A DNA stretch of 64,000 nucleotides from Flavobacteriales bacterium. GTDB taxonomy: Bacteria > Bacteroidota > Bacteroidia > Flavobacteriales_F > PHOS-HE28. This document shows, in pieces, positions 26,632-30,732 of this stretch (within the stretch, counting starts at the first letter, position 1; each line of letters opens with the position of its first letter). Where the stretch lies: positions 2,489,330 through 2,553,329 of the forward strand of contig JADJWA010000001.1 in NCBI GenBank assembly GCA_016716605.1. The letters are read 5' to 3'. The notes below the pieces were generated by a model that worked only from the letters and a program-made list of their open reading frames with translations, searched no databases and was not told where the DNA came from. The position numbers and the translations under genes were made by a program.

Positions 26632-27789
26632 ATGAGCGCAACGGCAGCACCCATCCGACTGGCCATTGTAACGCCGAAGGAGAATGCTTGGAGCGAGACC
26701 TTCATCGCCGCGCACATCGAACGATTGAAAGGCGTGGAACTGGTGCTTGCCGGAGGTGAGTTGCCCACGCATGTGGTGAATGGAAAGGTGCTGCGCGGGA
26801 AAGGGGCGTTCGCTTATCTGCGCGATCAGGCTGCTGCACGCGCGCTTCGCACGGATCAGGATGGCATCCTGGTGCGGCGCATTGCGGCCGTGCTGCGGCG
26901 GGCGCGCATTGATGTGGTGCTCGCCGAATACGGCACCACGGCCCACGCCATGCTCGCTCCATGCGCCTTGGCGGGCGTGCCGCTCGTGGCGCACTTCCAC
27001 GGCTTCGATGCGCATGTTGATGCGGTGATCAAGGCCCACCACGACTACCGCGCGCTCTTCGCGCAGTCCAGCGCATTGGTGGTGGTGAGCCGCGGCATGG
27101 AACAGCAGCTATTGGATTTGGGCGCGCTGCGCGAGAAAGTGGTGCGCAACAGTTGCGGAGTCGATGCCGAGCGCTTCGCCATGGGCGATCCAGCCCGCAC
27201 GCCGCCTCATTTCTTGTTCGTGGGCCGCTTCGTCGATAAGAAAGCGCCGCACCTCGCGCTGAGCGCCTTCGAGCGCCTCGTGGAGCGCGTGCCCGAGGCC
27301 AAGCTCACCATGGTGGGTCAAGGTCCGTTGTGGGAGAGTTGCGCGCAGCGGGTGCGTTCATCGCCCTTGGCCGGACGCGTCGAGTTGCCTGGGATTCTGA
27401 GCCCTGATGAGGTCGCTTCGCTGCTGCGCGGTGCACGTGCCTTCGTGCTGCACAGCGTGCGCGCGCTCAATGGCGATTGTGAGGGCACGCCGGTGGCCGT
27501 GCTCGAGGCGATGGCTTCGGGCATCCCCGTGGTGGCCACGCGGCATGCGGGCATCGGTGATGTGGTGGTGCATGAGGAGCACGGGCTGCTCTGCGATGAG
27601 CACGATGTGGAGGCCATGGCCATGAACCTGGAGCGCGTGGCGCGTGATCCGCAGCTCGCAGGTGAACTGGGCCGCGCTGGCCGTGCGAAGGCCGAGCGCG
27701 AGCATCGCGTGGAGGACAGCATCGCGGGCTTGCAGGCGATCCTGGAGCGCGTTGCGCGAGGGACAGGGCGTCTTGTTGAGCGCAGCTGA
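26632..27789 (+). CDS. Family 4 (GT-B) glycosyltransferase, paralog B (tandem duplicate of 25404-26519)
   Basis: Colinear with paralog A along its whole length, with roughly two thirds to three quarters of residues identical by eye. Examples: SETFIAAHIERL, ARIDVVLAEYG, VGRFVDKKAPHL, LTMVGQGPLWESC, GDCEGTPVAVLEAMASGIPVVATRHAGIGDVV. Confidence 0.85.
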   Translation: MSATAAPIRLAIVTPKENAWSETFIAAHIERLKGVELVLAGGELPTHVVNGKVLRGKGAFAYLRDQAAARALRTDQDGILVRRIAAVLRRARIDVVLAEYGTTAHAMLAPCALAGVPLVAHFHGFDAHVDAVIKAHHDYRALFAQSSALVVVSRGMEQQLLDLGALREKVVRNSCGVDAERFAMGDPARTPPHFLFVGRFVDKKAPHLALSAFERLVERVPEAKLTMVGQGPLWESCAQRVRSSPLAGRVELPGILSPDEVASLLRGARAFVLHSVRALNGDCEGTPVAVLEAMASGIPVVATRHAGIGDVVVHEEHGLLCDEHDVEAMAMNLERVARDPQLAGELGRAGRAKAEREHRVEDSIAGLQAILERVARGTGRLVERS

Positions 27790-27807
27790 TTGAAGTTCAT
27801 TCCCTGC

Positions 27808-28027
27808 GTCTCGTCGGGCCTTCAGCCCTCCCGATGCTTGGGCTGGTGGATCGGCGGCACCACGGGTGCCGCCGGGGATGTGGTCGGCCCTTCAGGCCTA
27901 CCATTTGTCACGTTCATGGGATTGGAAATGCTGGTTGTTTCTGGCAGCGCCGGATGCTTTGCTAACGGGGAAATAGCAACGGACTGAAAGCCTGGCCAGA
28001 AAGCGGCTTGCGCCCGTGGTGCAAGCC
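27808..28027 (+). repeat. 220-bp hairpin-rich repeat element, copy L (3' side of the RAYT-like gene)
   Basis: Aligns without indels to 28545-28764 (offset 737 bp), with roughly nine in ten positions identical by eye. It contains CGGGCCTTCAGCCCTCC, a perfect hairpin CGGCGGCACC-ACG-GGTGCCGCCG (27852-27874), GGCCCTTCAGGCC and a TGAAAGCC core. Confidence 0.85.
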
Positions 28028-28052
28028 TTAGTTCACGCAAGGCCCGATGAAC

Positions 28053-28505
28053 TCAATCCCAGACGTACCGCTCATCGAAGTCAATGCCATTATCGATGAG
28101 TAGGCTCCGATACTCGTCCTGGAAGGATTGACGACGATGATGCTCGACTTGTCCATCGATGTACGCGAGCAGTCGGTCAACATCCATATAGTAGGCTGAG
28201 AACGCAGCATACCCCGTTTGCCAAGCGAATTTCTGGCATCGTTCGTCCTGGGTCTTCACCCAGCGCGAGGACCCCGTTTTGACTTGCTCCACCAGATCAG
28301 CAACCGACATGGTCCGTGCGAGACGAATCGCGAGATGCACATGGTCCTCGATGCCCCCGGCCCGATAACACTCAGACCCATGGTTCCTCACTATGCTGGC
28401 GAGGTACTCGTGCATGCGCTGCTTGATTCCGTCGTGGAGGAAGGGCTCTCGGTGCTTGGTGCTGAATGTGACATGGATGATGATGTTGCCGAGTGATTGG
28501 GGCAT
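28053..28505 (-). mobile_element. HUH / Y1 single-domain transposase-like gene (IS200-like fold, REP-associated tyrosine transposase [RAYT]-like), 150 aa
   Basis: IIIHVTFSTKHREPFL, HUH motif IEDHVHLAIRL, catalytic-Tyr context FAWQTGYAAFS, and YIDGQVEHHRRQSF. No tnpB-like second ORF is present. Third codon positions are visibly richer in A/T (CAT, GAT, TAT, CAA, CGT, ATT) than in neighbouring genes. Confidence 0.85.
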
Positions 28506-28544
28506 GGAGCAGGGGGTTATTGCTGTGAATTTAGGTTTGATCAG

Positions 28545-28764
28545 GTCTCGTCGGGCCTTCAGCCCTCCTGATGCTTATGCTGGTGAAACGGCCGTACCAC
28601 GGGTGCCGCCGGGGATGTGGTCGGCCCTTCAAGCCTTCCATATGTCACGTCCGTGGAATTGGAACTGCTGGTTGCTTCTGGCAGCGCCGGATGCTGCGTT
28701 AACGGGGAAATATCTGAGGGCTGAAAGCCGGACCAGATAGCGGCTTGCGCCAGTGGCGCGAGCC
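28545..28764 (+). repeat. 220-bp hairpin-rich repeat element, copy R (5' side of the RAYT-like gene), merging into the tandem array
   Basis: A direct repeat of 27808-28027. Its last roughly 51 bp (from 28714) are identical in sequence class to the start of the 139-bp tandem unit. Confidence 0.85.
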
Positions 28765-29222
28765 AATGGACGCGATAGGAAATTGGAGGGCTGAAGGCCC
28801 GATGAGCTCCCGGCATGCGCCACGAAGCGAGTGGATAACGAGGACAGCGAATCTGAGGGCTGAAAGCCCGACCAGATAGCGGCTTGCGCCAGTGGCGCGA
28901 GCCAATGGACGCGAAAGGGTATTGGAGGGCTGAAGGCCCGATGAGCTCCCGGCATGCGCCACGAAGCGAGTGGATAACGAGGACAGGGAATCTGAGGGCT
29001 GAAAGCCCGACCAGATACGGCTTGCGCCAGTGGCGCGAGCCAATGGACGCGAAAGGGTATTGGAGGGCTGAAGGCCCGATGAGCTCCCGGCATGCGCCAC
29101 GAAGCGAGTGGATAACGAGGACAGGGAATCTGAGGGCTGAAAGCCCGACCAGATAGCGGCTTGCGCCAGTGGCGCGAGCCAATGGACGCGAAAGGGTATT
29201 GGAGGGCTGAAGGCCCGATGAG
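28714..29222 (+). repeat. Tandem array, about 3.7 copies of a 139-bp unit carrying REP-like hairpins
   Basis: Unit starts (CTGAGGGCTGAAAGCC) are at 28714, 28853, 28992 and 29130, giving periods of 139, 139 and 138. Copies are near-identical. Each unit holds GGGCTGAAAGCCC (5-bp stem), GCGCCAGTGGCGC (6-bp stem) and GGAGGGCTGAAGGCCCG. Confidence 0.95.
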
Positions 29223-29301
29223 ACCTAATCGCGCCAAGTGTGAATTGACGGCCACCCTTGAGGCTGTCATCGATCATTCGAGGATTCCCCATCTTGGCCC
29301 C

Positions 29302-30732
29302 ATGAAGGCATCGCTCCCGCTGCGCATCCTCATCGGCCTCGGTGCCGGCATCATCTGGGCCGTGACCAGCAGCACGCTCGGCTTCAGCGAATTCACCCTC
29401 GATTGGATCGCGCCCTTCGGCGACATCTTCATCAATCTGCTGAAGCTCATCGCGATCCCGCTCGTGCTCTTCAGCATCATCAGCGGGGTGAGCGGATTGG
29501 GCGATGTGGCCAAGCTGGGGCGCACCGGCTTGCGCATGCTCGCGCTCTACCTCGCCACCACGGTGATGGCCATCAGCGTGGGCCTTTTGCTGGTGAATGT
29601 GATCAAGCCCGGTGAATGGTCGGATGATGCCCAGCGCCTGCGCAACCGCATCGGCTATGAGCTCTGGGTGCAGGAGACCGCCAGCGTGGAGAAGCCCAAG
29701 GATGGCCGCTGCGTGAGCTGCGACCCTGCGAATGCCGCACTGGTGGCCGAGGTGCTCGCGGCTCGGAAGGCCTCGCCGCCCGATCCCGCGCTCATGGGCA
29801 AGGTGGAGCAGGCGAAACAGGTGCAGGGCGGTCCGCTCCAGTTCCTCGTGGACATGGTGCCCAGCAACATCTTCCTCAGCTTCAACAATGCCCTGATGCT
29901 GCAGGTGATCTTCTTCGCGCTCTTCTTCGGCATCGTGCTGCTCATGGTCCCGGCGGCAGCTGCCGCGCCCGTGGTGTCGCTGGTGAACGGCCTCAACGAG
30001 GTGTTCATGAAGATGGTGGACGTGGTGATGCGCGCGGCCCCCTGGTTCGTGTTCGCGCTCATGGCCGGCGTGGTGTCGCGCATCGCGGGCGATGACCCGG
30101 CGGCCGTGCTCCAGTTGTTCAAGTCGCTGGCCGGCTACAGCCTCACCGTGCTCATCGGGCTGGCGCTCATGGTCTTCCTGGTCTATCCCGTGGTGATGAC
30201 GCTGCTGATGCGCCGCAACGTGTTCGCGCGCTTCCTCAAGGCCATCAGCCCGGCGCAGCTGCTCGCCTTCAGCACCAGCAGCAGCGCCGCCACCTTGCCC
30301 GCCACGATCGAGTGCGTGGAGGAGCGCATCGGCGTGAGCAAGAGCACGGCGAGTTTCGTGCTGCCCATCGGTGCCACGGTGAACATGGATGGCACCAGCC
30401 TGTACCAGGCCGTGGCCGTGATCTTCCTCGCGCAATTCCATTGGGTCGATCTCTCGATCGGCCAGCAGCTCGGCGTCATCCTCACCGCCACGCTCGCGAG
30501 CATCGGGGCCGCTGCGGTGCCCAGTGCGGGCCTCATCACGCTCTTCATCGTGCTCACGGGGCTCGGCCTCGACCCGGCGTGGATCGCCATCATCCTGCCG
30601 GTTGACCGCCTGCTCGACATGTGCCGCACCGTGGTGAACGTGACCGGCGATGCCGCCTGCTGCAGCATCGTGGCGCACAGCCAAGGCGAGAAGCTCTTCC
30701 CGGATGAGGAGGCCGTGGCCTCAGGCTCCTGA
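29302..30732 (+). CDS. Dicarboxylate/amino acid:cation symporter (DAACS, GltP-like)
   Basis: FSTSSSAATLPATIECVE, LPIGATVNMDGTSLYQAVAVIFLAQ, AAVPSAGLITL. The start is at MKASLPLRILIGLGAG. The track's 29161 start lies inside the tandem repeat. Confidence 0.9.
   Translation: MKASLPLRILIGLGAGIIWAVTSSTLGFSEFTLDWIAPFGDIFINLLKLIAIPLVLFSIISGVSGLGDVAKLGRTGLRMLALYLATTVMAISVGLLLVNVIKPGEWSDDAQRLRNRIGYELWVQETASVEKPKDGRCVSCDPANAALVAEVLAARKASPPDPALMGKVEQAKQVQGGPLQFLVDMVPSNIFLSFNNALMLQVIFFALFFGIVLLMVPAAAAAPVVSLVNGLNEVFMKMVDVVMRAAPWFVFALMAGVVSRIAGDDPAAVLQLFKSLAGYSLTVLIGLALMVFLVYPVVMTLLMRRNVFARFLKAISPAQLLAFSTSSSAATLPATIECVEERIGVSKSTASFVLPIGATVNMDGTSLYQAVAVIFLAQFHWVDLSIGQQLGVILTATLASIGAAAVPSAGLITLFIVLTGLGLDPAWIAIILPVDRLLDMCRTVVNVTGDAACCSIVAHSQGEKLFPDEEAVASGS

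Follow-up and report, generated by a model that had tools for sequence, protein, structure and literature searches.

A probable low-copy mobile element of the IS200 type with REP-like hairpin arms in a Flavobacteriales genome

The window analyzed here is a 64,000-nucleotide (64-kb) stretch of contig JADJWA010000001.1 from a Flavobacteriales bacterium. At positions 27808-29224 it contains a block in which the gene for a 150-residue HUH/Y1 enzyme lies among short hairpin repeats. We consider it probable, at roughly 65%, that this locus is a low-copy mobile IS200-like element with cognate repeats that resemble repetitive extragenic palindromes (REPs). The repeats, which we call arms, are about 95 nt long and composed of three short hairpins with GAA-type triloops, namely hp0, hp2 and hp1. 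The hp1 hairpin is a near-invariant 17-mer (GGAGGGCTGAAGGCCCG), referred to below as the core, while hp2 is a longer hairpin with a co-varying stem.

The partnership between enzyme and repeat appears well supported when homologous loci are compared. Of the 17 homologues that share 50% identity or more, 16 have the core in their flanks; most of these 16 have one to seven sense cores upstream, spaced by about 70 nt, and one antisense core 9-42 nt past the stop codon. As a check of the linkage, we selected six homologues on long contigs, with similarity of the protein as the only criterion. In five of them a full arm ends 3-25 nt ahead of the start codon and a second arm, in mirror image, begins 2-19 nt past the stop codon; the sixth has six arms, all upstream. 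The first-pass annotation, made from the letters of the window alone, had described a Y1/HUH gene flanked by cognate hairpin repeats, and these counts bear out that part of it. Judging by these loci, the usual element is an arm, the gene and an inverted arm, with a length of 680-700 bp or so, the size of IS200. Two of the six homologues (L200 and L202) lie inside type I restriction-modification clusters, between HsdS/HsdM-like genes.

Within the genus, the 17-mer is present in 18 of 61 genomes at 1-13 copies, with a reversed control of nearly zero. The homologues of the genus are patchy, divergent and likewise flanked by repeats, and all genomes whose homologue shares at least 59% identity carry the 17-mer beside the gene. 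Arms detectable by R1, a covariance model built from 15 Acidobacteriaceae arms only, also surround homologues of 41-47% identity, including that of the relative G009. Homologues of 32-38% identity have other hairpin repeats and no R1-detectable arms. In a context of 40-46% G+C, the exact hp1 core and arms detected by R1 still accompany a Carboxylicivirga homologue of 38% identity (L067, 1789-2400; L074, 4474-5262), so that the conservation of hp1 extends far past the protein clade.

When searched against the whole window, R1 returned exactly six full-length arms, every one inside the block. All three hairpins align in these matches, and the sequences of hp0 and hp2 differ yet stay paired; on this alignment, the arms of the window are homologous to those of Acidobacteriaceae. 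Among 146 distinct arms taken from a wide range of phyla, the proportion of paired cells is 98.6%, and compensatory changes are found in 15 of the 18 pairs (13 out of 13 in hp0 and hp2). None of 500 shuffles reached the observed values, and slid controls were 16-55% paired. Wobble pairs are nearly all T-G on the arm strand (approximately 186 cells, versus 36 unpaired cells), a hint that the structure resides in the arm strand. Folding of whole arms as single-stranded DNA (ssDNA) gave mixed results (z = -4.0, -3.7 and -0.5). Because pairing between hp0 and hp1 is possible as well, folding alone leaves the structure of the arm undecided.

The layout of the arm is exemplified by a genome with 134 core copies, where hp0 (GCGCTGAAGGCGC) is followed by TTCTATACCAGCC, hp2 (8 bp, GAA loop and variable stem), about 23 nt, hp1 (GAGGGCTGAAGGCCCG) and ATCTAT. 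Around one quarter of the Acidobacteriaceae arms of G079 carry a second, small palindromic insert (GGGGTCCCCGGCGAGCGCTTTTGCTCGCTGGGGTGG) in the 5' half of hp2, a repeat within a repeat (L181, 229-330; L184, L185, L188 and L190). At two places in the homologue locus L199 (1150-1176 and 1672-1700), hp1 is replaced by GAGCCCTGTAGGGGCG and CGCCCCTACAGGGCTC, respectively; stem and loop are altered, still self-complementary, and the remaining arm is typical.

The enzyme gene occupies positions 28053-28505 of the minus strand. Its translation contains the DHVHLAI and WQTGYAAFS motifs, as already read in the first-pass annotation, which took it for a single-domain HUH protein. The product matches Pfam Y1_Tnp at 78 bits (cut-off 23) and, like an IS200 TnpA, exceeds the cut-off of the NCBIfam profile transpos_IS200 (NF033573; 60.7 bits, cut-off 55). 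In a profile search of the 4.07-Mb, 99.9%-complete genome, this gene was the only Y1_Tnp match. No tnpB was seen beside it in the list of open reading frames (ORFs), no search aimed at the tnpB family having been made. The HuH motif (D54-H55-V56-H57) and the W motif (W95-Q96) are present, with H55, H57, W95 and Q96 invariant across 46 homologues. The Y motif reads Y115-IDG-Q119-VE-H122-H123 (YIDGQVEHH); over the 46-49 homologues examined, Q119, H122 and H123 are invariant and Y115 is kept in at least 90%. The C-terminal region contains FDERYVWD, and F128, E131, D144, W149 and D150 are conserved among homologues.

These features fit subclass 1.2 of the TnpA-Y1 enzymes as defined by Quentin, Siguier, Chandler & Fichant (2018; PMC6006769). 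In Table 1 of that work, the subclass is assigned 148 aa, the motifs DH[IV]H, WQ and YIKNQKEHH (Y---Q--HH), a specific C-terminal domain, 1.7 copies per genome and an occurrence in Cyanobacteria and Bacteroidetes. The sequence studied here shares the length (approximately 148-150 aa), all three motifs, the conserved C-terminal tail, the low copy number (one in this genome) and the presence in Bacteroidetes. In contrast to the published entry, which reports "no" associated secondary structures and no properties of insertion sequences (ISs), conserved three-hairpin arms enclose the gene and its homologues, insertion polymorphism is seen among them, and the family reaches well beyond Cyanobacteria and Bacteroidetes. 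Quentin et al. remark that Bertels et al. (2017) left subclass 1.2 undescribed; looking for later literature on this subclass or on the hp1 core sequence, we found nothing beyond PMC6006769. The near-identical multiple copies typical of subclass 1.1 ISs are not seen, as there is one copy here, and relatives hold 1-9 Y1 copies that are 24-60% identical to the query.

Structural comparison places the enzyme close to the transposases of IS200/IS605. A phmmer search against the PDB matched IS200/IS605 transposases alone, and weakly (E-value 0.008-0.09), with the Escherichia coli TnpA-REP (4ER8) not among the matches. The AF2 model of the protein (pLDDT 87.6) has as best Foldseek matches the TnpA of ISDra2, IS608 and Sulfolobus (E-value ~1e-7), with TM scores of 0.63/0.74 to ISDra2/IS608 TnpA, consistent with an IS200 TnpA fold; 4ER8 appears at rank 30 (E-value = 3.5e-4). 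The family comprises more than 3,800 clusters at E-value <= 1e-10, and its named members of 56-60% identity come from Flavobacteriales, Verrucomicrobia, Acidobacteria, Hydrogenedentota and Marinimicrobia. Identity to proteins of other phyla (57-60%) is about equal to that found inside the genus (59-75%).

The block 27808-29224 is most likely an insertion, because in two relatives, G009 and G007, the GT4 and symporter genes that border it are adjacent, with no block between them. In G009, whose symporter is 97% identical, the GT4 stop codon lies 57 nt from the symporter ATG, and in G007 (88% identical) 23 nt; neither site has a Y1 gene or a core. This comparison supports what the first-pass annotation had raised as a possibility, that gene and flanks were inserted between these two genes. 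G009 has its own homologue, of 47% identity, 167 kb away. The flanks of the 16 homologue loci have no common neighbours apart from one Acidobacteriaceae pair. The base composition of the gene also departs from that of its surroundings: the G+C content of third codon positions (GC3) is 0.675, versus 0.76-0.77 in the GT4 genes and 0.91 in the symporter gene, in agreement with the A/T-richer third positions noticed at first reading, and the overall G+C content is 0.55 versus 0.65-0.66 in the neighbours. By these comparisons, the element behaves as mobile and not as a domesticated resident. The same insertion is found in a metagenome contig of a sister strain (L196, 94-97% nucleotide identity). 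The dN/dS of the Y1 gene against this contig is 0.16, resting on just eight differences.

The repeats are confined to the locus in this genome. The 17-mer occurs six times within 1.4 kb and nowhere else in the genome with up to one mismatch; two mismatches add one stray match. Since the 17-mer is absent elsewhere and a reversed-pattern control gives 0-1 matches per genome, its six-fold local occurrence is not due to chance. Searches of the genome with blastn, using both long direct repeats and the 139-bp array unit described below, returned local copies only. An nhmmer profile of seven local arms recovered those seven (E-value <= 4e-12), the next match outside the locus having an E-value of 0.66.

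The situation differs in other phyla. An exact 17-mer scan with one genome per species returned at least 120 loci, and Flavobacteriales, Acidobacteriota, Verrucomicrobiota, Sumerlaeota, Kiritimatiellota, Planctomycetota and Hydrogenedentota are among the matches listed. Some exact matches in the genome-wide scan fall in coding sequence with no arm context and were treated as chance, such as those in Streptomyces, Rhizobium and archaeal genes reading GGLKARGHP, which we take to be a thiolase-type motif. Three loci (L090, L095 and L096) have the 17-mer inside archaeal and other coding sequence with this reading. Exact-match core scans therefore yield coding false positives. Counted over whole genomes, the core reaches 103 copies in a Sumerlaeota metagenome-assembled genome, 79 in a member of Verrucomicrobia subdivision 3, and 134 and 24 in two Acidobacteriaceae, with 0-1 in controls. 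Each of these four genomes encodes a homologue of 45-57% identity. The core often forms inverted doublets in high-copy genomes, and the dispersed unit of the 134-copy genome is a palindrome of two arms of about 190 nt, similar to REPINs. Exact hp1 cores are also found where no Y1 homologue is detectable, in G055 (C44:22305 and 22373; C69:10804) and in G011 (C10), resembling REPINs left after the loss of a RAYT.

Within the window, the features of the locus are the following.

27808-29224, no strand: whole block, most likely inserted, with 24-nt inverted hp1 ends as edges (GTCTCGTCGGGCCTTCAGCCCTCC ... GGAGGGCTGAAGGCCCGATGAGAC); inverted repeat I4, 96% complementary; site empty in G009 and G007.
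27808-28027, plus strand: direct repeat L, consisting of a reversed arm, a spacer and the beginning of a forward arm; direct-repeat search.
27807-27905, minus strand: extra three-hairpin arm (hp0', perfect 10-bp hp2, hp1) in the gene's orientation, forming the left part of L; R1 32.8 bits, E-value = 1.7e-6.
27980-28053, plus strand: arm abutting the stop codon and facing the gene, with half of hp1 lost (CACGCAAGGCCCGATGAACTC); nhmmer E-value = 3.9e-12, direct-repeat families D3/D4.
28053-28505, minus strand: HUH/Y1 enzyme gene, 150 aa, fitting TnpA-Y1 subclass 1.2; Pfam/NCBIfam matches, motifs, AF2 model and Foldseek.
28544-28642, minus strand: arm beside the gene start, in the gene's orientation, forming the left part of R; R1 24.3 bits, E-value = 2.3e-4.
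28545-28764, plus strand: direct repeat R, 87% identical to L; direct-repeat search.
28711-29225, plus strand: four head-to-tail arms (28711-28809, 28850-28948, 28989-29086 and 29127-29225) that make up the 139-bp array; R1 36.7-43.5 bits, E-value 3.6e-9 to 1.9e-7.

Read along the plus strand, the block thus consists of a reversed arm, a spacer, a forward arm, the gene (on the minus strand), a reversed arm, a spacer and four forward arms. The first-pass annotation had seen this as an unusual geometry of long direct-repeat flanks, which does not hold: the central portion of the locus, from about 27980 to 28642, is the usual element, with arm, gene and inverted arm. An inverted arm pair with its spacer is present on either side of the gene, hence the 220-bp direct repeats, and the locus is a usual element with extra, partly duplicated arms, that is, a partial duplication and no new layout. 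Several details of the annotation are confirmed. L and R are gap-free direct copies at an offset of 737, both begin with CGGGCCTTCAGCCCTCC (27814 and 28551), and the 10-bp stem of L (27852-27874) is perfect, its counterpart in R having two mismatches; the gap of 25 nt between the gene and L is also correct, while that to R measures 39 nt instead of 40. The unit actually repeated in L and R is a composite of about 262 nt, which extends into the following hp1 core (families D3/D4). A homologue of 35% identity has a 263-nt direct repeat with a spacing of 816.

The arms of the block differ in condition. The extra arm in L folds as DNA at -28.3 kcal/mol (z = -4.0). The arm beside the gene start, whose hp1 ends 45 nt ahead of the ATG, has two mismatches in hp2 and folds no better than shuffles (z = -0.5). 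The hp1 of the stop-codon arm is intact in the sister-strain contig L196 (GGAGGGCTGAAGGCCCGATGAACTCA). Tandem Repeats Finder describes the array (28712-29222) as 3.7 copies with a period of 139 and 98% matches, besides a weaker period of 69 nt. Each 139-bp unit consists of two modules of about 69 nt, whose A-half and B-half align over 37 nt, and this module size matches the 68-72-nt spacing of the cores upstream of homologue genes. Over the region corresponding to 28712-29222, the sister-strain contig (L196, 830-1240) holds approximately 1.7 units, versus 3.7 in the window, which may be a real copy-number variation or a collapse of the short-read assembly. Two readings were rejected: the 44-nt tail after hp1 in the array is not a remnant of the gene's 3' end, as 818 of 1,000 shuffles score as well, and the array is not CRISPR-like, its "spacers" being just two alternating sequences.

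At a distance of 78 nt, the array lies upstream of the symporter start codon. In G009 and G007 the symporter gene adjoins the GT4/glycan operon; here the block lies between the two (window positions 29225-29301 and 27790-27807), and transcription of the symporter must now begin within the hairpin array or read through it. A scan of 27700-29400 for sigma-70 promoters and intrinsic terminators found none, the scan having no coverage of Bacteroidota-type promoters.

The arms are also related to a catalogued motif, Acido-Lenti-1 (RF01687). The reverse complement of hp0, linker and hp2 from Acidobacteriaceae and Sumerlaeota arms scores 39-48 bits on this model, above its gathering score of 37, and arms of the genus relatives score 25-35 bits. 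The arms of the window, homologous to those of the other phyla, give no RF01687 match even at E-value <= 10, and Rfam scans at E-value <= 1 and <= 10 gave no meaningful family. The likeness concerns the outer half of the arm, whereas the Acido-Lenti-1 model lacks hp1 and is catalogued as a small RNA (sRNA). In the work of Weinberg et al. (2010; PMC2864571), the motif counts as "probably RNA" and is listed for Acidobacteria and Lentisphaerae, and a recent preprint (bioRxiv 10.64898/2026.10.21.760802) still calls it an sRNA of unknown function.

The element can be compared with the ISs of the IS200/IS605 group, such as IS200, IS608 and ISDra2. It shares with them the HUH/Y1 fold, the length of about 680-700 bp, the position of the gene between hairpin-bearing ends and mobility on an evolutionary scale. 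It differs in its copies, which are one to few and divergent where those ISs have many and identical copies, in its ends, formed by multi-hairpin arms in mirror image where those ISs have two dissimilar subterminal hairpins read on a single strand, and in its chains of tandem modules upstream of the gene; as far as the ORF list goes, it also has no tnpB.

By analogy with these systems, the subclass 1.2 HUH/Y1 ssDNA endonuclease would recognize single-stranded DNA at hp1 and perhaps along the entire arm. It would then cut and rejoin beside hp1, as the TnpA of IS608 and ISDra2 and the E. coli TnpA-REP do with their own hairpins. Such activity would move the gene-bearing element and, in trans, gene-less arm pairs, which would account for the REPIN-like or MITE-like palindromes and the 24-134 core copies of other phyla. 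In the lineage studied here, the element appears to have reached the spacer between the GT4 and symporter genes by horizontal transfer, without later dispersal in the genome. Extra arms have accumulated locally only, as a reversed arm with spacer on each side of the gene and as the young 139-bp array. The comparisons show the class and fold of the protein, the build of the arms and their covariation, the linkage of arms and gene across phyla, the empty site in two relatives and the restriction of the arms to one locus in this genome. What we infer is that the enzyme binds and cuts, on which strand and where it does so, and whether the local arrays stem from its action or from slippage or recombination.

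Several observations weigh against this interpretation. Orphan arms exist in genomes with no gene, for example G055, which is 100% complete. The alignment used for covariation was fitted to the model and most of its loci were retrieved through the exact 17-mer, so that the invariance of hp1 is partly by construction. Neither arms nor cores occur elsewhere in this genome, short of the dispersed, high-copy repeats of RAYTs; the proximal arm in R has a weakened hp2, and the stop-codon arm lacks half of hp1. At the borders of the block, compared with G009 and G007, no cleavage site, target site or target duplication is readable, the spacers being too diverged to align, and the empty site in these two relatives could in principle reflect losses in two lineages. 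In addition, inverted arms are unlike the ends of IS200/IS605, which are recognized on one strand, and one strand-specific enzyme would have two mirror-image ends to process.

The damaged arms and the absence of dispersal raise the question of whether the element is a decaying relic, inactive in this lineage, whose 220-bp repeats and 139-bp array arose solely through slippage during replication and through unequal recombination among hairpin modules that resemble each other. The element in this genome may indeed be inert, L and R are just 87% identical, and the sister-strain contig appears to hold two fewer units of the array. We consider a relic unlikely, because the ORF is intact with all catalytic residues present, the dN/dS against the sister strain is low, and the 98% identity of the array units indicates a recent origin; moreover, this explanation concerns the present state only and leaves the identity of the element undisputed. 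Slightly less credit goes to the proposal of the first-pass annotation, a domesticated RAYT/REP-type system in which a host-retained, vertically inherited enzyme maintains repeats that serve the cell and the locus is its home site. The locus does resemble the REPtrons of E. coli TnpA-REP (4ER8) and the REPINs of Pseudomonas (PMC3116915, PMC3479197, PMC8266576) in its single-copy Y1 gene between inverted cognate hairpins (the minus-strand arm 28544-28642 and the plus-strand arm 27980-28053 face the gene), in repeats that are scattered in high numbers over other genomes, frequently in inverted doublets like REPINs, and in a hairpin sequence that shifts with the protein clade; the dN/dS also suggests purifying selection, with the reserve due to its eight differences. 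However, RAYTs are class 2 enzymes, whereas this is a class 1 protein that has Y---Q--HH in place of the class 2 motif Y[IV]..NP and a fold nearer to IS608 and ISDra2 TnpA than to 4ER8. The GTAG tag was not found, the conserved hairpin flanks being GGA-[hairpin]-GA(T/C), and the unit is a 95-nt arm of three hairpins instead of a REP of 20-40 nt. Identity of hp1 across phyla contrasts with REPs, which are typically lineage-specific. RAYTs of groups 2 and 3 keep a constant place in the chromosome and are inherited vertically (Bertels et al. 2017, PMC5581495), whereas this element is spread horizontally: its neighbourhood differs in every genome examined, apart from the Acidobacteriaceae pair, the site is empty in two relatives, GC3 is below that of the neighbours, and identity across phyla is about that within the genus. 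A genome-wide copy-number check, which the first-pass annotation had set beforehand as decisive against its own proposal, found the repeat and the core nowhere else in the genome.

An RNA-level role of the arms seems the least probable of the alternatives. According to it, the arms would be RNA genes or signals, such as terminators, stabilizers or regulators that act on the Y1 mRNA and on genes nearby, and the Y1 enzyme would not act on them. The scores of other phyla's arms on RF01687, the earlier rating of that motif, the strand bias of the T-G wobble pairs and the proximity of the array to the symporter ATG are all in its favour. T-G pairs are, however, tolerated in DNA hairpins too, and GAA triloops closed by C-G are reportedly, after Hirao et al., very stable in DNA. 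The arms are found in either orientation, joined in pairs as palindromes and set as mirror images around the gene, which fits a DNA element better than a transcript. Those of the window do not match RF01687, and no promoter-like or terminator-like site was found in the block by the sigma-70-type scan, Bacteroidota promoters being outside its coverage.

Beyond the mobile IS200-like element with cognate repeats, we lean, with little more than even confidence, towards a wider proposal. Subclass 1.2 enzymes and three-hairpin arms would form a second REP/RAYT-like system, independently evolved from IS200 class 1, present in at least seven phyla and based on a near-invariant 17-nt recognition hairpin. 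Acido-Lenti-1 would be the outer half of an ssDNA substrate and not an RNA gene, and the window would represent the seed state of the system, newly acquired, undispersed and amplifying only locally. If the link holds, subclass 1.2 gains a DNA partner, the orphan motif Acido-Lenti-1 gains an explanation, and the class 2 RAYTs are joined by a second case in which a Y1 nuclease coexists with a dispersed hairpin repeat. Because Flavobacteriales and Acidobacteriota have the identical 17-mer, the system provides a substrate that can be tested directly. Its natural states, from zero to more than 100 dispersed copies, would be of help in studying how such repeats invade genomes. In the genome analyzed here, the block has parted a symporter gene from a glycan operon to which it is adjacent in relatives.

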